Shown here piece by piece: positions 23,860 through 59,702 of a DNA stretch of 64,000 nt; position 1 is the first letter of the stretch, and each line of letters begins with the position of its first letter. Both the position numbers and the translations under genes were made by a program. Where the stretch lies: assembly GCA_910577075.1 (NCBI GenBank), contig CAJTKV010000005.1:680-64679 (forward strand), given 5' to 3'. The notes below the pieces were generated by a model. That model ran no database searches. It was not told the origin of the DNA and saw nothing but the letters and a program-made list of their open reading frames with translations. This stretch comes from an uncultured Bacilli bacterium (GTDB lineage Bacteria; Bacillota_I; Bacilli_A; RF39; UBA660).

Positions 23860-24882
23860 ATGGAATCAAGTGCTTTAACTAAATTTATTTCAATTATCTA
23901 TTGGATTTTATGTTTTTTATTACCTGTGATATATTTGATAATTTACCACAATAAGGTAAAGAAGAAAAAAAGGAAAAACTATAATAGGGCTTTTGGCGTT
24001 GCTTTTGTTATATTTATTATCCTATTTGGCATAAAATTATTACTGAGATTAAATGTTGCTATTTTTGAATATCCAAATTGTTTAATCAATAATATATGTG
24101 AAGAAGAAGAGGAAGATATACCGGTGAATAAGGAAAATGATAAGACAACTAAGAAAACGACGACAAGTACTAGCACTTCAACGAAAACGACCAATTCGAC
24201 GACGAAGAAAATTACCAACGAAAAAACATATGCAAAGGTTAAAGATATCGATGGAGAAAAGATCAGTAAAGGAAAAACTAGTAAGGGATACGATATTTAT
24301 GAAATCAATGGAGTTACATATGTTGATGGATATTTAATCGCCAATAAGACTTACTTTTTACCAGAAGATTATGCTCCAAGTGATACTTATACTAAAGCCG
24401 ATAAAGAAGCTACTCGTCAATGTGCAACATGCATAAACAATACGGCATATCAAGCTTATAAAGATATGAAAGCTGATGCCAGTGCGCTTAATTTAAATAT
24501 ATACATTTCAAGTGGCTTTAGATCGTTTATAACACAGAGAAATATCTATAATAGAAATGTTAAGAATAATGGACAGCAAAAGGCTGACACTTATTCGGCT
24601 CGTCCAGGTAGTTCGGAACATCAAACAGGTCTATGTTTTGATTTGAATACAATTGATTCATCTTTTGCCAACACGGCAGAAGGAAAATGGGTCAACCAAA
24701 ATGCTTGGAAATATGGATATATTATCAGATATCCTAAGGGTAAAAATGATGAAACAGGCTATATCTATGAACCTTGGCATTTGAGATATGTTGGAACAGA
24801 ACTTGCCCGCAAATTATATAATAATGGTGATTGGATAAGTATAGAAGATTATTTTGGAATAACAAGTAAATATGATGAATAG
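23860..24882 (+). CDS. VanY-like D-Ala-D-Ala carboxypeptidase (peptidase M15B), membrane-anchored
   Basis: N-terminal TM and a Thr/Ser-rich linker. Zn motifs SEHQTGLCFDL, EPWHLRYVG and SGFRSF. Confidence 0.8.
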   Translation: MESSALTKFISIIYWILCFLLPVIYLIIYHNKVKKKKRKNYNRAFGVAFVIFIILFGIKLLLRLNVAIFEYPNCLINNICEEEEEDIPVNKENDKTTKKTTTSTSTSTKTTNSTTKKITNEKTYAKVKDIDGEKISKGKTSKGYDIYEINGVTYVDGYLIANKTYFLPEDYAPSDTYTKADKEATRQCATCINNTAYQAYKDMKADASALNLNIYISSGFRSFITQRNIYNRNVKNNGQQKADTYSARPGSSEHQTGLCFDLNTIDSSFANTAEGKWVNQNAWKYGYIIRYPKGKNDETGYIYEPWHLRYVGTELARKLYNNGDWISIEDYFGITSKYDE

Positions 24883-31905: not shown

Positions 31906-32445
31906 TTAATAATTTTCGGCTTTGATTTCGAAATATGCTTTAGGATGGGCACATACTGGACATACTTCTGGTGCTTCTTTACCAACTACTATATGACCAC
32001 AGTTGCGGCATTTCCAAATACGATCTCCATCTTTAGAGAACACTAATCCGCCTTCAACATTTTCGATAAGTTTGCGATATCTCTCTTCATGTTCTTTTTC
32101 GATTTTGCCAACACTTTCAAATAAGAAGGCAAGACGTTCAAATCCCTCTTCTCTAGCTGTTTTAGCAAATTCATCGTACATGTCAGTCCATTCGAAGTTT
32201 TCGCCATCGGCTGCGGCATTTAAATTTTCTAGTGTTGAAGGAATTTCGCCACCATTTAATTCTTTAAACCACATTTTGGCATGTTCTTTTTCATTTTCCG
32301 CAGTTTCTAAGAATATTGCAGCAATTTGCTCATATCCTTCCTTTTTAGCTTTACTAGCAAAATAAGTATATTTATTTCTAGCTTGAGATTCGCCTGCAAA
32401 AGCAGTCATTAAGTTTTGTTCTGTTTTTGTTCCTTTATAATTCAT
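31906..32445 (-). CDS. Rubrerythrin
   Basis: Di-iron four-helix motifs (ExxH twice) and a C-terminal rubredoxin-like CRNCGH...CPVC. The start is at [12 protein letters not shown], which has a GAGAGGT RBS. Confidence 0.85.
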
Positions 32446-32528
32446 TTTATTTACCTCTCTTTCTATTAATATTTTATATTTTTTTTGCATTTTTTTCAAT
32501 ACTATTTGTGAATTTAGGAGGTTCTTTT

Positions 32529-32810
32529 ATGAATTATTTAACTTGGCAAAATATCAATAAAGACATTGCCAAATTTATTGAATTATTTGTATTACCAAAT
32601 ACTTTAGCTTTTACTTTAGCAAAGTTATATTTTGATGATATAGAGATACAAGATTCTTATAAAGTATTCTATAATACAATAAGAAATCTATTTAATATAA
32701 TTGATGAGGATAAAAATCTCATATTTAAAATTACACGGCAAATATTATATGTTAAGTATGGTCTAGAATTTGAGAGCATAAACCCAATAAAATTAAAAAA
32801 GATAAACTGA
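32529..32810 (+). CDS. Hypothetical protein (93 aa)
   Basis: TAGGAGG RBS before MNYLTWQNI. Confidence 0.35.
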   Translation: MNYLTWQNINKDIAKFIELFVLPNTLAFTLAKLYFDDIEIQDSYKVFYNTIRNLFNIIDEDKNLIFKITRQILYVKYGLEFESINPIKLKKIN

Positions 32811-32812
32811 AT

Positions 32813-34165
32813 TTATCTTAATATTAAAGATTTTTTTATTATTCTTTCATTGTTTCTAGCACCAGTTCCCAATTGAATAATTTCCGTATTGGTGGAACTT
32901 TCAATCCAATATAAGTACTCTTTAATATTTCTTTCAATATCGGCTTCTTCATAGGTACATGATTTATGATAGTAATCTATGGATAATTGTTGAAAGAAAT
33001 TGAGATAGATCCCATAAGAATCATTTAATTGAAGATATCGTTTTAGTTTGTCAATATCCATATTAAATATTCTTCTCTCCTTTTGGGTAACGGTTGTATT
33101 TTCCGATAGATCTTCAATGTAAGGAGATACGTTATCAGAAAATTTAAGGATTCTACTGATATATCGTGGTGTATTATTTTCTTTATAGAAAAGTCTTTCC
33201 ATCTCGAGTGCTTCAAGAACTGTAACTTCGCTAGCATTGATATGCTGATAATTGTCGCCAAATACTTGTTTTAAAGTTGTCTCACTAGATACATCTAATA
33301 GTTCTTCTACGATTTTTCTAGTAAGATGATGATCATAGAAATCTATATCATTCTTAAAAGGAGGAATGCCAAATTTAGATGCTAAGTTGATTTGAGTCCA
33401 AGTTAATTCTTGTCCTTCACCAAATGATCCCGTATAACAAAGTGCTCCCTTTTCACTGATATTACTGATGCGGATGGGAAAAGGTCTTATTGTCATAATG
33501 TTTTCAAGATGACGTGATGGGGATATTCCTGTATCATCTAGCAATCGAGATATCGAAACATTCCTGCTCGTTACATACGGATAATTTCCGCTGTGATTTA
33601 AAGATAAACCGCAGCCTTGGGCTCCCTCTAATAGGACATACTCCTCAGGATTATCTAAGTGGGCATAGAGGCGATCAAACCATTCATCGTTTGTACATCT
33701 TATAGCATTTTTATAGGTTTGAAAGAACTTTAAATTTGGATCACGCATGATCTTTTCTATACTAACAGCTCCACAGCCCTTGTATGTTGAACCTGTTTTA
33801 ATATTTTCTCTTTCATATTCTTTATGGCGCTCCTCTATTAAAGGAACTAATTCGTGAACATATATTTTTCTGTCACCTAAGTAGGGTTCAATTAATCTAT
33901 ACTCTTCTTTAAAAACTGGCATATCGATGGCAGAACCAGAACCTATAAAAAGATCTGTTTGGGGATTAACACTGGCAACAGGTATGTTTCTAAAAACGAG
34001 TTTTTTTCCACGTTCATCAACAAAGGTGTGTCCAGCATTTGTCATGCAATTAGTTACGGATGCTCTTAGGTTGATTGTAATATCCGTTGCTATTTCACCA
34101 ATTACTTTGGCTTTACCACTACTTCCTGCTACACCATCTAAAACTGTTATGACATTTTTATTCAT
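32813..34165 (-). CDS. Adenylosuccinate-synthetase (PurA) family protein, highly divergent at catalytic and substrate-binding positions
   Basis: Conserved NAGHT and LLEGAQGCGLSLNHSGNYPYVTSRN (compare canonical [23 protein letters not shown]), and IQLGTGARNNER (compare STGPDRTET). The P-loop GDEGKGK is replaced by GSSGKAK. The TTGRGIGP loop is replaced by STYKGCGA, and the aspartate loop GATTGRRRR by GSFGEGQEL. Confidence 0.6.
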   Translation of the reverse strand: MNKNVITVLDGVAGSSGKAKVIGEIATDITINLRASVTNCMTNAGHTFVDERGKKLVFRNIPVASVNPQTDLFIGSGSAIDMPVFKEEYRLIEPYLGDRKIYVHELVPLIEERHKEYERENIKTGSTYKGCGAVSIEKIMRDPNLKFFQTYKNAIRCTNDEWFDRLYAHLDNPEEYVLLEGAQGCGLSLNHSGNYPYVTSRNVSISRLLDDTGISPSRHLENIMTIRPFPIRISNISEKGALCYTGSFGEGQELTWTQINLASKFGIPPFKNDIDFYDHHLTRKIVEELLDVSSETTLKQVFGDNYQHINASEVTVLEALEMERLFYKENNTPRYISRILKFSDNVSPYIEDLSENTTVTQKERRIFNMDIDKLKRYLQLNDSYGIYLNFFQQLSIDYYHKSCTYEEADIERNIKEYLYWIESSTNTEIIQLGTGARNNERIIKKSLILR

Positions 34166-34229
34166 AGTATCACCTACTTATATTTTATTATTATAACACG
34201 TTATAAATTTAAGGGAAATAAAAAAGAAA

Positions 34230-35435
34230 CTAACGTCTCCTTTTCTTTCTTGAACTCAATAGACCAAAGCAGATAATTAACAAAAATATAATAGCTGCAA
34301 TAATGAGTATGGGTATTTTATTTGCTTTGATGATTTTTATGGCATCAGGTTCAATAGTCATATCAAGAGTTACTACTTCGGAGCCGATTAATTCATCATT
34401 ATAATAGTACTTAATCTGACCTAGTTCTTCACCTGGTTGATTATTATAATCAATCATATTCTTTCCTTCATATTCAAGAAGAACTAAATCTTTATTATAG
34501 TCTTTAGGTAAAAACTTTTTAAAATTGTTTTTGGTCTTTATTTCATAAGTATCAATTTTAGCTAGTTCAACAGCGATATTTTTAACTACTGTATCTTTGG
34601 GTATTATCTCTTCATATTTATAACTATCTTCTAAGAAGTCAATTAAAGTATTGGCATCTTTAATATTATAAAAATCTCCATAAACATATGGTGCCTTCAT
34701 GGTTATTACAATTACTTCGTGATCTAGGATATTAGTTAAAGCCGAAATGCAAATACCCGCCTTACTTGTGTATCCTGTTTTACTTCCCTTTATTCGCGAG
34801 ACGTCAATATTCATCTTTTGTGAATACATTTTTATTGTTGATTCAACTTTTTGGTTATTAGATAAAAGATATTCCCTAGTACAATAAATTTTTTTGAATG
34901 TGGGATTGCCCAAGGCATACTTTAATATTTTCATGACATCTTTAGCCGTACTATAGTGGTTTTCAACATCTAGGCCGGTAACATTGACAAAATGGGTATT
35001 TGTTACACCAATTTTTTTGGCAATAGTATTCATCTCTTTGACAAAGTTAGAAATACTCCCAGATGTCGATACGGCAATGGACTGTGTAGCATCAGCGCCA
35101 CTTGGAAGAATTGAAGCATATAATAAATCTTCAAAAGTATAGGTCTCCCCGAGGTTTAGATGCGCAATGGAGGCATCAGCCGGAATTCCTGCTAACATTG
35201 ACTCGGATATTTTTATCTTTTTAGATAGATCATTATTTAACTCTAATGCAGTAATAGTTGTCATTATCTTAGTTAAAGAAGCAATATTGGTCTTCTTATC
35301 GCTATTTTTTTCAATAAGGACTTGATCATCTGTTAAATCATAAAGCATGACGATTTCCGAATATGTATTGGGAAGTTCAAGTCCAAATGTTGAAATTGGA
35401 ATTAATAATAGTATAAACAATAATATTTTTTTCAT
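34230..35435 (-). CDS. D-alanyl-D-alanine carboxypeptidase (PBP5/DacA-like, S11) with C-terminal anchor
   Basis: Signal peptide, the SxxK motif ASLTKIMT, and a C-terminal TM. Confidence 0.75.
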   Translation of the reverse strand: MKKILLFILLLIPISTFGLELPNTYSEIVMLYDLTDDQVLIEKNSDKKTNIASLTKIMTTITALELNNDLSKKIKISESMLAGIPADASIAHLNLGETYTFEDLLYASILPSGADATQSIAVSTSGSISNFVKEMNTIAKKIGVTNTHFVNVTGLDVENHYSTAKDVMKILKYALGNPTFKKIYCTREYLLSNNQKVESTIKMYSQKMNIDVSRIKGSKTGYTSKAGICISALTNILDHEVIVITMKAPYVYGDFYNIKDANTLIDFLEDSYKYEEIIPKDTVVKNIAVELAKIDTYEIKTKNNFKKFLPKDYNKDLVLLEYEGKNMIDYNNQPGEELGQIKYYYNDELIGSEVVTLDMTIEPDAIKIIKANKIPILIIAAIIFLLIICFGLLSSRKKRRR

Positions 35436-35470: not shown

Positions 35471-36670
35471 TTAATTAAAATATTTAATCTTAAATTCTGT
35501 CTCATTATTTTGGGATTCAACACTTATGGTTCCCCCGTCTCGCTCAACGATAGTCTTGGACAGAGCAAGTCCAATGCCTACACTGTCCTTGCTGCTATTT
35601 TTCCCCTTATAAAATCTTTCAAAGATATGGGATATTTCCTCTTTGGGTATCGTATTTCCAGCATTTTTTATAGATATAATGGCGAATATGCGATTATCTG
35701 TTGCGGTAATAGATACTGTGCTTTGCTCGTAGGCATGTTCAACACAGTTTTTAACGACATTTGTTAGTGCTTCTATTTCCCACTTTAAATCCCCTTTTAT
35801 CTTTAATGACTTATCGCATTTAACTGCTATTTTGACATCTTTTAAATCCGTCAATGGAAGTACATTTTTAACACTTTCATCTATAATCTTTTGAACACTT
35901 ATATACTCTTCAGAAAAAGTAATAGTATTGGCATCAAATTTAGACAATTTCAAAATATTTTGAACTAAGAAATTGATATTATTTATTTCTCTTTTAATAT
36001 CTAATATAAAATCCTCTCTTACACTTTCTTCCATCATAGGATCGTCGATGATATTATCTAACATAATACCTATTGAAGTTAAAGGAGTCTTTAATTGGTG
36101 AGAGATATCAGATAGCGAGTCTTTAAGTTGCTTCTTATCATTTAAGGAATTATCGGCGGCTTCTTTTAACATTACCATCGTCTTATATATCTCATTTTGC
36201 AGTAATGATAGAGAATTTTCCTTATTAGATAAGATATCTAATTTATAATTCTTGCGGTTTATCTCTTCAACATACTTAGTGATTTCAGTAATTTTATTAT
36301 TTACTATCTTGTTATAAATGAGAAAAAAGATAAGCAATACTGCAGCATATACTATAATAATTATGGCATTAGATATATACATATTGTCAATAGTAGCTTG
36401 GTTGCTAAGACTTACCGATTCTTTGCGAATATCTATTCCATATTCTTTCAAGGCATTATCATCACCTAGATGTTTTTTATTTAAAATTGCTATTATGTTA
36501 TTAGTGGATACTTCGGGATATTCCTTCTTTATTTCAGAAACCAAGTTATTTACTATGATATTATAATTGTAATCATATTCTTTAATGAAGTTATTAGTAT
36601 TTATTGCTAAAAGCATAAGAAAGAAAAGAGATATTATACTACCTATTAGAATTACTATTTTATTTTTCAT
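35471..36670 (-). CDS. Sensor histidine kinase (2 TM, about 75-aa extracytoplasmic loop)
   Basis: H-box SHQLKTPLTSI and a HATPase domain (GIGLALSKTIVERDGGTISV). It overlaps the regulator's stop codon. Confidence 0.8.
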   Translation of the reverse strand: MKNKIVILIGSIISLFFLMLLAINTNNFIKEYDYNYNIIVNNLVSEIKKEYPEVSTNNIIAILNKKHLGDDNALKEYGIDIRKESVSLSNQATIDNMYISNAIIIIVYAAVLLIFFLIYNKIVNNKITEITKYVEEINRKNYKLDILSNKENSLSLLQNEIYKTMVMLKEAADNSLNDKKQLKDSLSDISHQLKTPLTSIGIMLDNIIDDPMMEESVREDFILDIKREINNINFLVQNILKLSKFDANTITFSEEYISVQKIIDESVKNVLPLTDLKDVKIAVKCDKSLKIKGDLKWEIEALTNVVKNCVEHAYEQSTVSITATDNRIFAIISIKNAGNTIPKEEISHIFERFYKGKNSSKDSVGIGLALSKTIVERDGGTISVESQNNETEFKIKYFN

Positions 36671-37303
36671 CTATTCTATAACCTACTCCCTTTAATGTTA
36701 TAATAATATCGCTGGCGAGTTTTTCGCGTATTCTTTTCATATAGACCGTAACAGTATTATCGTACACGTCATTTCCCGTCCATTCCCAAATACGTTCAAT
36801 AATTAACTGTCTAGTGACAACTTTATTCATATTATTAAATAAAAGTGCTAATATTTTTAATTCTAAGCTAGATAGATTAATGGCCTCACCATTCTTGGAT
36901 ACTTCCATCTTATCAAAATCAAAGGTTATATCTTTAATTGTAATTTTATTGTTTTCTTTATTTATGAGTATTCGATTGATCGTGCAAGAAGTTCTCGGGT
37001 AGAAAAAGGCTTAGTTATATAATCATCAGCACCAAGTTCTAGTCCTAAAACAATATCATCTTCGGTATCTCTGGCTGTTAAAAATATCGTTTTAATATTA
37101 TTTACATGATTCTTATATAAATCAAAGCCGTTGCCATCTGGCAAAGAGACATCTAAGATTATTAAATCCACAGGGTTATTTGCGATATAGTCAATAGTAT
37201 CTTTTGCCGTTGTTCTAACAATGACATTGTACTTATTTTGTTCTAAAGCATAAACAAGACCTTTTACAATACTTTGATTATCCTCTACTAGTAATATTTT
37301 CAT
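36660..37303 (-). pseudogene. OmpR-family response regulator interrupted by a frameshift (receiver 37303-36962; winged-helix 36908-36660)
   Basis: The receiver domain ends ...KPFSTRELLARSIEYS*. The DNA-binding domain (INRILINKENNKITIKDITFDFDKMEVSKNGEAINLS...GYRIDEK) continues in another frame from about position 36985. An indel within the ATCAATCG tract would restore the frame. Confidence 0.6.
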
Positions 37304-37361: not shown

Positions 37362-38333
37362 CTACTTTGCTGGTTTAGGTATTTCGTCATCATTAAAACC
37401 TATTCTTTCAAATTTCTTATCCATAGTTGAGTCATAAGAATAGTTAACTCGCCCATGAGATAAATCTTTTAATCCCTCTTGAACTTTAGGATTGCTCTCA
37501 CCGCAGATCATTAAATCAAGTTCCCAGTCTTCAACAGGCGGAATAAAGACCTCTTTGGGAAAGTTCATATAGACCTCATCTATATTCATATTTCTTAAAC
37601 CACTTTCCTGGTTTAAAGGAACACTAGAACTAAAGGTGAGATTGTTTGCAAAATCATCGATAAAAAGATGAGCAGTATCTAAATATTCTCTTGAAATAAC
37701 TGTTCTACGGGAACGAAGACTCTCAATATTTTCATCACTAGCTATTAAGGCTTTTCTTGGAATATATAACATGGAATCTATGCTGGCTGTTTTAAAGTTT
37801 TCATTTAGTTCTCCACGAGTATAATGAACAATCTCTTTTTTTAACATTAAACCACAAGAGGAGTATTTTTCTGTTTCTTGCCATACAGAATTATTGCACT
37901 TATCAATTGGACATTGATAATTATCTATTGTTGATCCGAGTGTAGTAATAGAAAGATTGTTTTTTCCCTCTAGAGAAATAGTCTTTTCGATTACACTTCT
38001 TTGATGCATAGGCTCTCCATCCTTAGGAATAGATGATTTTTCTGTTAAAAGGAAGCATTTTATACTATTAGAATCATAGCTTGTTAATCCTAGAGCATAA
38101 GCAATATCTGAATCATCTGTATAAGTAAAAGTTATTGCCTTATCAAATTGTTTTACTTTAGGTTCATCGTCTATATTATCTAGAGGGATATTGTTAATAA
38201 GTCCATTTATTTCCGATAGCGCCGATGAAAAAGCAGGATTTTCTTTAAATTTAGGACTTATGCCTAATTCGTACAATTTAGATAATATACCATTTTTAAG
38301 TTCACTAACTGTATATTCCATATTAGCCTCCAT
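37362..38333 (-). CDS. Hypothetical protein (323 aa)
   Basis: GGAGG RBS; flanked by terminators; no motifs recognised. Confidence 0.45.
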   Translation of the reverse strand: MEANMEYTVSELKNGILSKLYELGISPKFKENPAFSSALSEINGLINNIPLDNIDDEPKVKQFDKAITFTYTDDSDIAYALGLTSYDSNSIKCFLLTEKSSIPKDGEPMHQRSVIEKTISLEGKNNLSITTLGSTIDNYQCPIDKCNNSVWQETEKYSSCGLMLKKEIVHYTRGELNENFKTASIDSMLYIPRKALIASDENIESLRSRRTVISREYLDTAHLFIDDFANNLTFSSSVPLNQESGLRNMNIDEVYMNFPKEVFIPPVEDWELDLMICGESNPKVQEGLKDLSHGRVNYSYDSTMDKKFERIGFNDDEIPKPAK

Positions 38334-51322: not shown

Positions 51323-54007
51323 TTAACAATTGGCGAATACGCCATCGATAATTTTTACATGCTCATCTATATGAAAGGTACTTTCCTTAACTAAACGACG
51401 ATTAGTAGTAGATTTGTATTTTTCTTCTATCTTTGGGCTTTTAGCAAGTTCTAATTCAATCCAAGGAGGAAGCGTTCCATAGAAGTGGAAATATAGATAA
51501 TCGACAAATTTCGAAAACTTATCTTCACGAAATTCAGTTGTAACAATTTTTTCCTTAATCGTAGTTAGTTCTTCGATACTCAATTGATCAATTAGGGGCA
51601 TCATCTGCTCATAAGCTAAAATGCGGGCCGGAGTGTCGATATCGAGAATATGTTCTAATTCTCTTTCTTTGTTCATTATATTTATGAATTCCATTATATG
51701 TTCATAATCCGCTTGGGAGATATCTTCATTTTTTAAGCTAGTTTCATAATCTACAAAGTCCGTAAAATCTTCTAAGTAGCTCATTAAAGATCCAATCGAA
51801 TAATTTTCTCTTAACACATAATCTCGTGATTCTAACGTATCTAGTTGTTGCTCTATATCATATTTATGACGGCATTGTTTTGTTAATATGTAATTTTTTA
51901 AAATTTCATAATCTTCAGCACTTAAATTTAGAGAATTCAAAAATAGTTCAATATCCGATAAATACCAGTGAGGATAATCAAGTGATTGAAGTTTATCAGT
52001 TATATCAGGATATTGATTTTCGACATATGAACATATTAATATGTCTTCATCGATTATTGATGCACTTATTTTATCATATTCATCCCATAAATCTAATAAA
52101 TCCTTTATGCTCTTTTTAGTTCTCTCCTGTTCTTTTAAAGGGGTGTTATTTTCCTCAAAGAGATATTCTAAGGGATAATCCAGTATATGAATATCGCGAG
52201 TTCTTTTTAAGGCCTGATAGAGATTATCATCTTCATAAGTAAAACTATCAGGAGCAAAATCGAGATATGTTACTTCCTTACCATCTTTTATCTCTGTGCG
52301 TTCAACTAATCTGTGGATAGGAGCATAGCATAAAATGCTAGTATTACGGAATATATCTCTTGCCAATTCTTCTATTTCTTCACGACGCTTTATAAGAGCT
52401 AGATTTTTATTATAGGTTTCCTCAAAACCTTCTATTTTATCTTCGTATATGTCCTTAATTTTTCGCGATAAGAATGTCAATTTTGTTGGCTCATTAAAGG
52501 TGCGATTGTAGTAATAATCAAAGATATTGTTTTCATTTTCAACGATAATATTTTTTATTTCTTCATAGTGTTCTGGAACGGTTACATCTACTGCTTCACT
52601 CTTTTCAATACTTTCTAAAACTTTTCCATCGGGTCCTAGAATATGATAAACATCGGTATTGTATCCAATGCGTCTTGGTTTTATCAGTCTCTTACCATCT
52701 CTTCCAACTATTGTGGATAAATACTTTTCGTTGATACTTTCTAGTAATATATTAAAGGGGTCAATCTCCGTTGGTGGGATAAAAGTAATATCCTGCTCAC
52801 GTCCTAATTTTTGACGCTCACTCAAAGGAAGTGAAAGCATCTTTTTTATGGATTCCTCATTGCTGTTTTCAATAATGCCTTTATATTTCTCTAATGCGAC
52901 CTTAGATAGATGAAGAGAATCCCAAAATTTCTTGTGTTTTCTTACTTCATCGGACATATGATGGGTAATGAAATTGGCAATTCTATCTTCGCCCTCTACT
53001 TTTTGTCCTTTAAAATGCGCCTGTAATTTTTTTAGAACATCACTTTGAATAATGCGAATGCACCCGCTTAATGATTCCAATTCAGGAAGTTCATCTAAGA
53101 ACTTGTATGATGTCGCCGTTCCATATACCTCTAATTCAACAATGTTATATAGGACAGTTAGCAAATCTATTTCTTGGGGAGTTAATTCTATATCATTTAA
53201 ACTAGCCTTTGTTAATTTATGAAAATTAGTACACAAAAGGAAATGGGCTATATTGATATTTTTCAAATTGTGAAGTTTTAAATCACAAACATTTAAATCA
53301 ACAGATCTTGGAGTATTATCGGAAATTTGACTATTATAGATGGAAAGGATTTTAGCATTCAAATGATCCAAACACTTTAAGTTGGCAATATCGCTTCCGC
53401 CTATAGTCAAAAAAGATAAGGGGATACTGCCAAAATTCGTCGCTTCAACTAGGGAGTTATGAATCTCTAGGGACTTTAAATTTTTATACATTTTTAGATG
53501 TTCAATATCTCTGTTTTTTACTACTGCATCAGATATTTTAACATTTTTAATATTATCTTTTGATAAAATGTTGGCTGGACGATATTTAATGCTTATTTCA
53601 CGATTTCCCGCACATCCATAGATATATTTATTTATCTTTTCATAAAATTCTTTATAGTTGTTTTTTATATATTCGTCGAGTATATCTAAAAGTTCATCTA
53701 TACTAGGGGCATCTTCACCTTGATAAAATTGATCTTTTCCTATGTAAACATCTATATATTTATATTTTTTATTAAAGGGTGTCCCATATACAAGAGTAAG
53801 GATTAATCCCTTGTGACGAAGATATATTCTCTCATCTTTAATGTTCTCTTCTAGGACAACACTGGTCGTTATTTTTCCATTACTATCCTCACTTATTTGA
53901 CGATATAAATCATGGGAAAATGTTTTTTCTTGTTCTCCTTGGTTTCTATCTAAAAAAACTAATCGGTTGTAAAAATTATCAAAATGTTGTTTTATTCTAT
54001 CGTTCAT
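51323..54007 (-). CDS. Large hypothetical cytoplasmic protein (894 aa) with a leucine-rich-repeat-like segment
   Basis: GGTGA RBS. Residues about 170-300 show an LxxLxLxxN-type periodicity. No enzymatic motifs were recognised. Confidence 0.5.
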   Translation of the reverse strand: MNDRIKQHFDNFYNRLVFLDRNQGEQEKTFSHDLYRQISEDSNGKITTSVVLEENIKDERIYLRHKGLILTLVYGTPFNKKYKYIDVYIGKDQFYQGEDAPSIDELLDILDEYIKNNYKEFYEKINKYIYGCAGNREISIKYRPANILSKDNIKNVKISDAVVKNRDIEHLKMYKNLKSLEIHNSLVEATNFGSIPLSFLTIGGSDIANLKCLDHLNAKILSIYNSQISDNTPRSVDLNVCDLKLHNLKNINIAHFLLCTNFHKLTKASLNDIELTPQEIDLLTVLYNIVELEVYGTATSYKFLDELPELESLSGCIRIIQSDVLKKLQAHFKGQKVEGEDRIANFITHHMSDEVRKHKKFWDSLHLSKVALEKYKGIIENSNEESIKKMLSLPLSERQKLGREQDITFIPPTEIDPFNILLESINEKYLSTIVGRDGKRLIKPRRIGYNTDVYHILGPDGKVLESIEKSEAVDVTVPEHYEEIKNIIVENENNIFDYYYNRTFNEPTKLTFLSRKIKDIYEDKIEGFEETYNKNLALIKRREEIEELARDIFRNTSILCYAPIHRLVERTEIKDGKEVTYLDFAPDSFTYEDDNLYQALKRTRDIHILDYPLEYLFEENNTPLKEQERTKKSIKDLLDLWDEYDKISASIIDEDILICSYVENQYPDITDKLQSLDYPHWYLSDIELFLNSLNLSAEDYEILKNYILTKQCRHKYDIEQQLDTLESRDYVLRENYSIGSLMSYLEDFTDFVDYETSLKNEDISQADYEHIMEFINIMNKERELEHILDIDTPARILAYEQMMPLIDQLSIEELTTIKEKIVTTEFREDKFSKFVDYLYFHFYGTLPPWIELELAKSPKIEEKYKSTTNRRLVKESTFHIDEHVKIIDGVFANC

Positions 54008-57414: not shown

Positions 57415-59586
57415 TTATTTAATGTCTTCAAATTCTTTTCTTTCACTTATTATATCTATATCTTTAATGTCTACTTCTTTATTTTCATATTTTTCTCGTA
57501 TAAACTCTAAAAATTTTTGTTCTAAATCGCCGGTGTTTTTTACTTTATAATCATTATTTTTTATGGATTTTTCCATCATTCCCCTTAGGCGCTTCCACTT
57601 ATCATAATATGCAGTTTTGGTTTTTACCATAAATGATTTATTATCCTCTAAAACAAATCCTTCGATGAAGTGGCCATTTAATTGATAGTCATCTCCCGTT
57701 ATTTGATTGTAAATATCTTTAAATTCTTCTGGGTTGTTTGCCGTATAGATTAGTTCTTTTACTTCAATGGCGTTATTATTACTAAAATATTTTAATTCAT
57801 CATAACTTACTTTGTCGTATTCATGCGTATTATAAATCATATCTAAAAGAATGAGATTTTGTTCTCTATATTCAATGATGTGTGGGTCATTTATTGGATC
57901 AATCACTTCAAAAACAAAGGATAAATTATCGGCAAGCATTTTATTCTTAATTGCAGATATTTGATCTTCACTGAAGATATTATAAAATATATCTGTAAAA
58001 TATGTAACAAATGGTCCTTCATTTGTCGATTTGGAAGCGAAGAAGAGTTCGCCATCTTTTGTAGATAAGATTCCCAAAAAGCCATTATATTTTAAATAAA
58101 AGTTAACAGGAAAATTTAAGGTATTAATTAAATCTTCTATTTGTGTTTCTCTACGTTCATTTATTTTAAAGAACTTATTATAACTTCTAGCAATTATTTT
58201 ATTGTTCAATGTATCAATAAATAATCCTCGAGCTTTAGTAGTCATATTATCCCATATGTGATTAGCAAATGCTTCTTTAGAAAAATTAAATGATGAGATA
58301 TTGTTTCCTAAATCCTTTTCAATAATATATTTATTATTTTTAAAATCATTTATCAAATTATAAATAGTTGTTTCCTCTATTAAGTTAGGATTGTATATGT
58401 CATTTTTTATTTCTGTACAAGAAATTCCAGTTGGTGAGATATTTAAAACACGAAGATGTCCTCCATGTTCAATATCACCTTCAAGATTTAAAGAAAGAGG
58501 ATATTCATCATACTTAATTTTATAGTAATTGCGATGAGCATGGATTTGAATTACTTTATTTTCTTGGTTTTCCATATACTCGTTATATATAGAATCTATA
58601 TTAACATCATATTTATCGATACCATAGATAAAGGAATTGGTGCTGTATAGATCTAGCGACTTTGATGGAAAATATGGTATTCCTCCATGAGATATTAAAT
58701 ATTTTTGGTCGTTAAATTCGATAAAAGATATCTGAGCTAATTTTTTAACAAAGCCACGAAGAAGACTTTTTTCGAGTTTATTATCTTCAAACTCTTCAAT
58801 AGTGTTTTTAATATCATAATCCATTTTAAATTCATCACCGCAGGCATATTTATATAATTTATCTTCATGATTGCCAACTAAGAATATCATATTATCGTTT
58901 TTCATTAATTCTAATAGATAATTAAATGTTTCATAATTTTCTATGCCACGATCAAAGTAATCACCAGTAAAGATATATGCATCTTTGTCTTTTATTGGAT
59001 TATCAGTAAAATATTTTTTTAAAGCGCTTAGGCAACCATGAATATCACCAATCACATGAATATTTTCATATTTATTAAAATCTCTTGGTATAGTCTTTAT
59101 TATATCTTGAAAGTTTTCTGGTTTGATAACTTGAAAAGATGATGGTACGGATTCTTTGGCAAATAGACGATAAGATTTGTCAATAGAACTTTCAGGAACT
59201 TGTTTATAGCTTTCACGAGCATTATTTCGCTCATAAACTATTTCTTTAGGAATATCAGTGAAATCTAAGAGATAGAGACGATAGCGATATTTTTCTGCTA
59301 ATTTTTTATAGTTTGATAACGATTCTTTAACGTTTGCATGAACGGCATCAATTATAGTGAATTCTCCTCTTCGCATTCTATCTTCTAATATCTCATATAA
59401 AAGATTCCAGATTTTTTTATTATTGAATTGAGGTATTGTTTCATTATAGTTTACAGTCATTTCAGGCGAAGAATACATAAGTCTTATTTTATCAGCGCAT
59501 AATGTATAGGCTTCTAAATTATTTTCTTGAATAAATGTGCTCTTTCCACAGCCCTGGGCTCCTCTTAGAATTACTAATTTTCGCAT
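57415..59586 (-). CDS. pnkp: Bacterial polynucleotide kinase-phosphatase-ligase (Pnkp-like, three domains)
   Basis: The N-terminal P-loop kinase (GAQGCGKST) is followed by a calcineurin-like phosphoesterase (GDIHGC, GDYFDRG, GNHE). The C-terminal nucleotidyltransferase has ligase motif I KYNGF, motif IV EGFVL and motif V FMVKTK. The start is at MRKLVILRG, which has an AAGGAGG RBS. Confidence 0.7.
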   Translation of the reverse strand: MRKLVILRGAQGCGKSTFIQENNLEAYTLCADKIRLMYSSPEMTVNYNETIPQFNNKKIWNLLYEILEDRMRRGEFTIIDAVHANVKESLSNYKKLAEKYRYRLYLLDFTDIPKEIVYERNNARESYKQVPESSIDKSYRLFAKESVPSSFQVIKPENFQDIIKTIPRDFNKYENIHVIGDIHGCLSALKKYFTDNPIKDKDAYIFTGDYFDRGIENYETFNYLLELMKNDNMIFLVGNHEDKLYKYACGDEFKMDYDIKNTIEEFEDNKLEKSLLRGFVKKLAQISFIEFNDQKYLISHGGIPYFPSKSLDLYSTNSFIYGIDKYDVNIDSIYNEYMENQENKVIQIHAHRNYYKIKYDEYPLSLNLEGDIEHGGHLRVLNISPTGISCTEIKNDIYNPNLIEETTIYNLINDFKNNKYIIEKDLGNNISSFNFSKEAFANHIWDNMTTKARGLFIDTLNNKIIARSYNKFFKINERRETQIEDLINTLNFPVNFYLKYNGFLGILSTKDGELFFASKSTNEGPFVTYFTDIFYNIFSEDQISAIKNKMLADNLSFVFEVIDPINDPHIIEYREQNLILLDMIYNTHEYDKVSYDELKYFSNNNAIEVKELIYTANNPEEFKDIYNQITGDDYQLNGHFIEGFVLEDNKSFMVKTKTAYYDKWKRLRGMMEKSIKNNDYKVKNTGDLEQKFLEFIREKYENKEVDIKDIDIISERKEFEDIK

Positions 59587-59702
59587 ATTTTTTCCTCCTT
59601 GATGCTTTATATTATACCATTTTTTTACCAACTATGATATTAGATGACAAGATTATTTTTAAATAATAAAAAGAGTCTATATAGACTCTTCCTGTTTTGT
59701 TA

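Follow-up and report, generated by a model that had tools for sequence, protein, structure and literature searches.

A PurZ-like, Ser-type member of the adenylosuccinate synthetase superfamily in uncultured gut Bacilli

The PurZ-like gene and its product

The stretch of DNA analysed here, 64 kb of contig CAJTKV010000005.1 from an uncultured Bacilli bacterium (hereafter the window), carries on its minus strand an intact gene for a 450-aa protein of the adenylosuccinate synthetase (PurA) superfamily, whose closest characterised relatives are all phage enzymes. Among these, phage PurZ is the N6-succino-2-amino-2'-deoxyadenylate synthase that makes the DNA base 2-aminoadenine (Z). Our comparisons of sequences and predicted structures indicate that a PurZ-like active-site architecture is found here in cells, encoded by a gene that is vertically maintained and has a new subdomain. 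The gene and the elements of its product are the following:

32813..34165, minus strand: PurZ-like coding sequence, Ser-type, adenylosuccinate-synthetase superfamily; intact open reading frame (ORF), 450 aa
34106..34132, minus strand: P-loop VAGSSGKAK, residues 12-20, placed by alignments; K18 corresponds to E. coli Lys16
34025..34039, minus strand: NAGHT, residues 43-47; N43 and A44 belong to the base pocket and H46 is the equivalent of the catalytic acid His41
33770..33793, minus strand: GSTYKGCG, residues 125-132, the PurZ-type 'ST' form of PurA TTGRGIG
33563..33628, minus strand: EGAQGCGLSLNHSGNYPYVTSR, residues 180-201 (EGAQG...YPYVTSR); Q183 corresponds to E. coli Gln224 and S-2L Q190
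33398..33409, minus strand: ELTW, residues 253-256, end of the PurZ-type element after the PIRIS strand
33110..33382, minus strand: family-specific helical insertion, 91 residues (262-352), a gap against PurZ in alignments
33068..33103, minus strand: aspartate-binding loop ENTTVTQKERRI, residues 355-366, placed by alignments; TTVTQKERR is 357-365
32990..33004, minus strand: LNFFQ, residues 388-392, replacing the PurA guanine-specificity motif TKLD
32846..32869, minus strand: GTGARNNE, C-terminal nucleotide-binding element, residues 433-440; G433 and G435 kept in 79/79 family sequences

The product matches PF00709 (adenylosuccinate synthetase) with 86.5 bits and E = 2e-24, so its assignment to the superfamily is not due to chance, and its N-terminus aligns with all homologues. 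The PurA hallmarks that an earlier sequence-only reading of this DNA had pointed out, namely NAGHT (43-47), EGAQG...YPYVTSR (180-201) and GTGARNNE (433-440), are all present.

Active-site residues of the PurZ type

In PurA, Asp13 is the catalytic base, Arg303 reads the ribose 2'-OH and the aspartate, and Asp333 reads the guanine. We mapped the residues of the query against S-2L PurZ, phiVC8 PurZ, PurZ0 of the Gordonia phage Archimedes, E. coli PurA and fragments of Pyrococcus horikoshii PurA, and counted conservation over 79 genome-derived family sequences. The P-loop GSSGKAK carries S15, the counterpart of S14 in phiVC8 PurZ and S23 in S-2L PurZ, at the position of the catalytic Asp13 of E. 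coli PurA, and the alignment bears out the proposal of the sequence-only reading that GDEGKGK had been replaced in this way; G14, S15, G17 and K18 are kept in 79/79 sequences. The proposed change of TTGRGIGP to STYKGCGA also holds, with E. coli GTTGRGIG aligning to GSTYKGCG, where T127 corresponds to E. coli Thr129 and S-2L T132 and both S126 and T127 are invariant in the 79. The same full conservation is found for NAGHT (43-47), for Q183, and for R232 and I233, the latter being the counterpart of S-2L V241 in the PIRIS strand. Asp13 is 99% conserved in PurA and Ser is found in 100% of phage PurZ/PurZ0 (PMC12884076), and Ser at this position is the marker that defines dZ phages (bioRxiv 10.1101/2025.10.22.683976).

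A different picture emerged for the aspartate-binding loop, in which TTGRRRR had been thought to become SFGEGQEL. This pairing was a misalignment, since SFGEGQEL (245-252) belongs to the PurZ-type element that ends in ELTW; this element is missing in E. coli and P. horikoshii PurA, ExxW is present in all Ser-type representatives, and W256 is kept in 79/79 family sequences. The true counterpart of ATTGRRRR is TTVTQKERR (357-365), downstream of an insertion that had gone unnoticed, and the loop is intact. Query ENTTVTQKERRIF (355-367) aligns with PurZ ELTTVTKKVRRVF and E. coli EFGATTGRRRRTG, so that T357 corresponds to S-2L T273, and T360, K362 and R364 to E. coli Thr301, Arg303 and Arg305, respectively. 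T357, V359, T360, E363 and R364 are kept in 79/79 sequences; the Arg303 position is Lys362 in the query and Met in 67/79 relatives. As the supposed loss of the aspartate loop came from the misalignment, the suggestion of a different amino donor is left unsupported, the loop being retained and 100% conserved.

In the LNFFQ motif, Q392 corresponds to S-2L Q308 and E. coli Asp333, a position held by Asp in Archimedes PurZ0 and in both P. horikoshii and E. coli PurA; N389 and F390 are kept in 79/79 sequences and Q392 in 73/79. S-2L S23, T273 and Q308, which have been named as PurZ-unique substrate-contacting residues (PMC8342488), are matched in the query by S15, T357 and Q392. Likewise, the dGMP pocket of S-2L PurZ (G22/S23/N49/A50/T132/Q190/V241) is represented by G14/S15/N43/A44/T127/Q183/I233, with a single conservative change, V241 to Ile. 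All the diagnostic residues (S15, T357, Q392, the dGMP pocket and the loss of Arg303 and Asp333) are therefore PurZ-type and not PurA-type. The statement that every defining element of the PurA chemistry had changed went too far, as the equivalents of His41, Lys16, Asn38, Thr129, Arg143, Gln224, Thr301 and Arg305 are retained. The diagnostic and catalytic residues are kept in 92-100% of the 79 sequences, so that the enzyme is constrained and presumably active.

Placement within the superfamily

The best matches in the PDB are headed by phiVC8 PurZ, together with Archimedes PurZ0, P. horikoshii PurA and S-2L PurZ, with E. coli PurA far weaker. The AlphaFold2 model of the query (pLDDT 85, pTM 0.86) superimposes in Foldseek on short PurA, PurZ and PurZ0 with target TM 0.75-0.85, and on long PurA with about 0.6. 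With phage PurZ (phiVC8, 6FM1/6FKO; S-2L, 7ODX; target TM ~0.8) the query has in common the short PurA fold, Ser for Asp13, 'ST' for 'TT', the ELTW element, the TTVT tip of the aspartate loop, LNF..Q/N for TKLD and the residues of the dGMP base pocket. It differs from phage PurZ in the 91-aa insertion, the GKAK P-loop and the invariant E363, and in being chromosomal in bacteria and unaccompanied by DatZ, MazZ and DpoZ. PurZ0 (7VF6) has the Ser-type P-loop, the TTVT loop and the short fold in common with the query, but this GTP-using enzyme keeps the guanine-reading Asp at the position of E. coli Asp333, where the query has Gln392 like the ATP-using S-2L PurZ. PurZ0 is phage-borne, together with DutZ and DmtZ (PMC12884076).

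The nearest cellular structure is the short PurA of P. horikoshii (5K7X/2D7U; model NF003295), with a target TM of 0.82-0.85 and the same two deletions relative to long PurA. The P. horikoshii enzyme nevertheless keeps GDEGKG with Asp13, GTTGSG, GTVTGRRRRVGW (GRRRR) and TMLD, none of which the query has, and the GS, TTVT and LNF states are consequently not general traits of archaeal-type PurA. With E. coli PurA (b4177) the query has in common PF00709, NAGHT, EGAQG, YPYVTS and the equivalents of Arg143, Arg305 and Thr301; the identity is only about 25%, Asp13, Arg303 and Asp333 are substituted, and the inserts of the long form are absent. The residues that characterise a canonical PurA (Asp13, and Arg303 with Asp333) are thus missing, and the scores against the PurA models remained below their cut-offs, with 146-152 bits for the archaeal-type model NF003295 (cut-off 368) and 99.8 bits, or 106.8 without the insertion, for the canonical purA model TIGR00184 (EC 6.3.4.4; cut-off 395.55). 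The match to the PurZ PHROG 1211 reached 162.7 bits. In NCBI these proteins are labelled 'adenylosuccinate synthetase'.

An exhaustive search of 1.84 billion protein cluster representatives gave 2,121 matches, and the nearest full-length representatives were Ser-type without exception (~134/~134), with a G-S-x-G-K P-loop, ExxW, TTVTxxxRR and LNF. A PurA/PurZ phylogeny, which the sequence-only reading had proposed as a check, was built by neighbour-joining on core columns with 60 bootstraps, and placed the query in a Ser-type clade that leaves E. coli and P. horikoshii PurA outside (58/60). The insertion family appeared monophyletic in 44/60 bootstraps and formed a clade with an insertion-less sister group in 60/60. 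This sister clade (P0124, P0295 and relatives, 360-395 aa, from other uncultured Bacilli) is 45-49% identical to the family and has the motifs AGS(C)GK, SGSTFKG and TTVTKK.RR in common with it, but carries only 10-26 residues at the insertion site and GKG where the insertion family has GKA. The Bacilli Ser-type clade is well supported and under purifying selection. The view of the protein as a non-canonical PurA-fold member resembling PurZ was sound, and the case for it is stronger than the sequence-only reading had made it, as the protein is PurZ-type at every diagnostic residue and lies inside the Ser-type clade.

Two metagenomic relatives depart from this pattern: P0127, in which the P-loop has reverted to GD and the aspartate loop is degenerate, and P0142, which has kept a 79-aa insertion but hardly any of the catalytic motifs. 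The two copies may be in decay.

A helical insertion next to the aspartate loop

In the HMMER alignment to phiVC8 PurZ the query breaks at residue 260 and resumes at 353, while the phage chain passes from position 276 to 278. All family members carry the insertion, with a length of 83-110 aa and the kept motifs LKQxFG and ALELERLxYK. It is predicted to fold as a compact helical subdomain, with pLDDT values of 87-96 as part of the full model and 94 on its own, and a Foldseek search against the PDB retrieved no structural neighbour (best E = 1.4). The insertion is placed immediately before the aspartate loop, which makes a role as a lid, regulatory or partner-binding element plausible in the model. 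Most members have 1-4 cysteines at recurring positions of the insertion (P0121: YPCCGDVDCY...CHCP), which might mark a site for a metal or a disulfide; the query has none, and its closest relatives few or none.

Distribution in cells and viruses

When a single genome was scanned for each GTDB species, 103 confirmed stretches emerged, of which 80 were retained. Nearly all of these come from metagenome-assembled genomes (MAGs) of uncultured gut bacteria named 'Bacilli', 'Tenericutes', 'Mollicutes' or 'Mycoplasmatota', and all 80 are 50-62% identical to the query. The sources include human, rabbit, mouse, chicken (Ca. Onthousia, Ca. Ventrenecus) and rumen, and one carrier (OZ006970.1) is a closed chromosome of 1.52 Mb. 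Overall, about 100 species-level genomes of uncultured gut Bacilli carry the PurZ-like family, and a protein identical to the query (MCX4365187.1) is encoded in the MAG GCA_026339395.1, 'Bacilli bacterium'. The carrier lineage probably corresponds to RF39, a reduced-genome order described by Nayfach et al. (PMC6784871).

By contrast with phage PurZ, which is encoded alongside dATP- and dGTP-hydrolysing partners (DatZ, MazZ, DUF550, DutZ) and often DpoZ, the gene lies on a bacterial chromosome and no viral contig carries the family: its specific peptide patterns gave no match among 2.9 million viral contigs (IMG/VR). The sister clade is also cellular, on contigs of up to 355 kb, and its best viral relatives are only 36-38% identical.

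The closest phage homologue of the query, with 34.7% identity, is encoded by Bacillus phage vB_BpsS-140 (L011:5962-7083). It is Ser-type (VGSEGKG) and scores higher with the archaeal-type PurA model (233.9 bits) than with the PurZ model (211.5 bits), reaching neither cut-off; no DatZ or MazZ is annotated near it. Other cellular Ser-type proteins were detected in cultured Proteobacteria, on plasmid pRLN3 of Rhizobium leguminosarum (L182:6461-8062) and the megaplasmid of Ralstonia solanacearum SY1 (L183:6437-8152). These 'adenylosuccinate synthetase' paralogues of 533-571 aa consist of an N-terminal P-loop kinase-like domain of ~180 aa fused to a Ser-type short PurA domain with the motifs YGSEGKG, PNAGH, GST and LTFAD, and further matches were found in Sinorhizobium, Agrobacterium, Methylobacterium and Burkholderia. 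Their neighbours are a small AAA ATPase, a hypothetical protein of 200-230 aa and transposases, with a TIGR02677-family gene nearby in Ralstonia, and PADLOC matched none of the genes at these paralogue loci. Rhizobium and Ralstonia presumably possess canonical purA, hence cellular Ser-type enzymes need not be housekeeping PurA.

Genomic surroundings

The following elements, read from the letters and with functions inferred, precede the gene:

34166..34229, minus strand: intergenic region of 64 bp, 5' of the PurZ-like gene, between the DacA-like gene and the ATG
34190-34198, minus strand: putative extended -10, TGTTATAAT
34170-34175, minus strand: putative Shine-Dalgarno sequence AGGTGA, 4 nt before the ATG of the PurZ-like gene

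The consensus promoter and terminator scan gave background level only, and the extended -10 was not listed by it because its -35 is poor. An Rfam scan of the window and 10 loci detected tRNAs only, with no Rfam element near the gene or near the Ppx-like/PurZ-like pair described below. As previously described, the gene is flanked by rubrerythrin (31906-32499) on one side and a DacA-like S11 carboxypeptidase (34230-35435) on the other; VanY, which had also been given as a flank, is encoded ~8 kb away (23860-24882). On the plus strand, a small ORF (32427-32810) converges on the PurZ-like gene, with its end 2 bp from that gene's stop codon; it encodes 127 aa from a TTG start, was called as 93 aa elsewhere, and is without Pfam match. 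In locus L015, where the upstream DacA-like gene is also found, a homologous ORF is located at this position.

The base composition of the PurZ-like gene is native to its surroundings, and the window is ordinary chromosome, encoding UvrA, Lgt, Dus, RecG, an AddAB-like pair, a two-component system and ABC transporters, with neither phage genes nor purine-pathway genes.

We analysed the context of 84 loci, 82 of which carry the PurZ-like gene. Its genomic position is not conserved and its neighbours vary, save for a Ppx/GppA-like gene that lies directly upstream on the same strand, with a gap of 12-33 bp, in 38/82 loci. A conserved operon was considered and rejected, as nothing else recurs and the window copy lacks this gene. 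The partner (~298-300 aa; e.g. L053:5081-5977) is a divergent ASKHA phosphatase of the Ppx/GppA type, which matches PF02541 with 34 bits and TIGR03706 with 45 bits, against a cut-off of 307 for the latter. Its ASKHA motifs are invariant, with INMGGKTTE as phosphate-2 motif versus VDQGGGSTE in Aquifex Ppx, and pairwise identities are 72-99.7%. Elsewhere the same upstream slot is taken by a small NUDIX hydrolase (L005, L018), an NrtR-like Nudix protein (L019), an HD and SpoT-like hydrolase (L041) or a HAD phosphatase (L073). An HD dGTPase-like protein with a CYTH domain and NT5C are encoded near sister-group genes, for which the Ppx-like partner was absent from the three contexts examined. One family copy is found among serine recombinase and Mob genes.

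The recurrence of a nucleotide phosphohydrolase upstream is a suggestive parallel to MazZ, DUF550 and DutZ, from which PurZ receives its dGMP in phages (PMC8342488, PMC12884076). The sequence-only reading had judged the protein 'not obviously PurZ'; it was right that DatZ, MazZ and phage genes are absent from the window, but the relatives often do carry such a phosphohydrolase.

Proposed activity and alternative explanations

Our tentative preference, held with slightly less than even confidence, is for a cellular, chromosomally inherited Ser-type PurZ-like enzyme performing PurZ-type chemistry on a guanine (deoxy)nucleotide. By analogy with the phage enzymes, the most likely chemistry would be an ATP- and aspartate-dependent amination of this nucleotide. 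The working form would be a dimer, as suggested by the retention of R141, the equivalent of Arg143. ATP rather than GTP would be bound, because Gln392 replaces the guanine-reading Asp333. A 6-oxopurine nucleoside monophosphate with a 2-amino group (dGMP or GMP) would occupy the PurZ-like pocket, and the gamma-phosphate would be transferred to O6 with His46 as catalytic acid, assisted by Lys18 and Mg2+. L-aspartate, held by the TTVT/R364 loop, would then displace the phosphate to give N6-succino-2-amino-(deoxy)adenylate. The substrate, the preference for deoxy- or ribonucleotides and the physiological purpose are inferred only from this analogy. Candidate purposes are the conversion of purine pools in a purine-salvaging, AT-rich, reduced-genome bacterium, or the synthesis of 2-aminoadenine nucleotides.

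Several results weigh against this proposal. None of DatZ, MazZ and DpoZ is encoded near the PurZ-like gene in the window, which also lacks the Ppx-like partner. This partner has at least 1,060 homologues, with 84-90% identity among the best 120, and as a lineage-wide gene in its own right its adjacency is suggestive only and may not mean a shared pathway. The identity of the query to characterised PurZ enzymes is only 31-35%. NF038379, the PurZ model, is the best NCBIfam model for the query, but the score of 181.6 bits, or 200.3 with the insertion removed, does not reach the cut-off of 300. Family member P0121 (176 bits) and members of the sister clade (194-210 bits) behaved in the same way. 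The positive controls used for calibration gave 397 (phiVC8 PurZ), 350 (S-2L PurZ) and 325 bits (Archimedes PurZ0), and the protein is accordingly regarded as PurZ-like but outside the curated PurZ family. In addition, constitutive Z-nucleotide synthesis or expression of a Z cluster is toxic in E. coli (PMC8342488), a toxicity that any model of cellular Z synthesis must accommodate, and a housekeeping role would explain the conservation of the gene in ~100 reduced genomes no less well.

Such a role is what the main alternative proposes, namely that the protein is the working adenylosuccinate synthetase of the lineage, forming adenylosuccinate from IMP and Asp, that the Ser-type enzyme replaced canonical PurA or is of independent descent, and that the insertion and substitutions reflect lineage drift. 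Presence in ~100 species-representative genomes of one broad lineage, the closed 1.52-Mb chromosome included, is typical of a core function, and the absence of the family from viral contigs, the native base composition, the ordinary chromosomal surroundings, the retention of the catalytic residues save Asp13 and the NCBI annotation point in the same direction. Moreover, tblastn detected neither canonical purA nor purB in the window or in 1.08 Mb of relatives' loci, weak evidence since ~0.7 copies would be expected by chance, and no other PF00709 gene and no purB lies within the 64-kb window or the 10-kb flanks. We nevertheless consider this alternative somewhat unlikely. Asp13, almost universal in PurA, is present even in the closest cellular short PurA, whereas Ser is found in 100% of the family; Arg303 is replaced by Met or Lys and the guanine-specific Asp333 is lost; and the characterised Ser-type enzymes all use dGMP. 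The gene also lacks a conserved position, with one copy among recombinase and mobilisation genes, and purB linkage was found in none of 91 loci.

It is also conceivable, though in our opinion doubtful, that PurZ-like chemistry is applied to another 6-oxopurine nucleotide, such as dIMP, XMP or a guanine nucleotide derived from (p)ppGpp, in the balancing of deoxynucleotide pools, detoxification or signalling, with the insertion adapting the binding of substrate or partner. The upstream neighbours, varied yet nucleotide-directed (Ppx/GppA-like, NUDIX, HD/SpoT-like, HAD phosphatase), would suit this idea, as would the dGTPase-like protein with CYTH and NT5C near sister-group genes, the invariant E363, A19 and K20 that have no PurZ counterpart, the well-folded and conserved insertion beside the aspartate loop, and the score well under the PurZ cut-off. 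On the other hand, the base pocket is residue for residue that of PurZ, and guanine is therefore favoured; no riboswitch or regulator indicates a metabolite, and the majority of the neighbour findings were made in one case only.

That the gene derives from a phage, as the relic of a prophage PurZ or as a component of an anti-phage system for nucleotide depletion or modification, would agree with the finding that the closest characterised relatives are all phage enzymes, with the variable position and the copy among serine recombinase and Mob genes, and with the distant Rhizobium and Ralstonia Ser-type paralogues beside AAA ATPases and transposases, including the TIGR02677-family gene in Ralstonia. 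We regard it as very unlikely. There are no phage genes in the 64 kb, the 2.9 million viral contigs yielded nothing of the family and only distant (36-38% identical) relatives of the sister group, and the gene is broadly and stably present across ~100 species, the family and its sister group holding together in 60/60 bootstraps. Both a prophage or phage origin of the locus and a defence-system identity were rejected, the former on the lack of phage genes in the window and of the family in IMG/VR, and the latter because PADLOC-DB v2 gave no defence-system match for the query, for its relatives P0121 and P0124, or for the Ppx-like partner. Finally, that the protein is a catalytically dead pseudoenzyme whose fold is kept for a structural or regulatory role, as the loss of the canonical Asp13 and the degenerate relative P0142 might suggest, is hardly credible, given that this Ser leaves phage PurZ fully active and that His46, Lys18, Gln183, Thr127, Arg364 and the nucleotide-binding motifs are 100% kept in 79 sequences.

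In the literature accessible to us, the PurZ-type group has been described only from phages and four archaeal sequences (PMC12884076), and our search of it found no report of a bacterial chromosomal PurZ-like clade and nothing specific on the purine metabolism of RF39-like Bacilli. The carriers of a Ser-type PurZ-like enzyme may handle guanine nucleotides in a manner known to date only in viruses. If PurZ chemistry has been kept, a cellular metabolism of 2-aminoadenine nucleotides would be indicated for the first time, with one soluble enzyme as a direct experimental handle. That a reduced-genome gut Bacilli lineage has gone further, domesticating a PurZ-type enzyme to make Z nucleotides from guanine nucleotides in normal physiology, seems to us improbable; if true, surplus dG would be turned into a T-pairing base in an AT-rich, nucleotide-salvaging cell, and Z, so far known only from phages, would occur in cellular DNA or in the nucleotide pool. 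Should the protein instead be the PurA of its lineage, adenylosuccinate synthesis would be possible without the 'essential' Asp13, and the use of the Ser marker for calling Z-genome phages in metagenomes would need to be changed. Either outcome bears on the NCBI annotation of these proteins as plain 'adenylosuccinate synthetase'.

Other features of the window

A response regulator gene on the minus strand (36660-37303), beside a histidine kinase gene, is split into ORFs for a 113-aa receiver and an 82-aa Trans_reg_C domain. The split also occurs in GCA_026339395.1, while two other assemblies of the region encode a single 170-aa product, and it may represent a frameshift, a pseudogene or strain variation. 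Further along the minus strand, the ORF at 57415-59631 encodes a Pnkp-like RNA repair enzyme of 738 aa (723 aa in locus L181) in which an AAA_33 kinase, a metallophosphatase and a T4-type RNA ligase domain are combined; Hen1 was not noted next to it. Two other ORFs on the minus strand, 37362-38333 (323 aa) and 51323-54007 (894 aa), are without Pfam match, and the 894-aa protein is present on many contigs.

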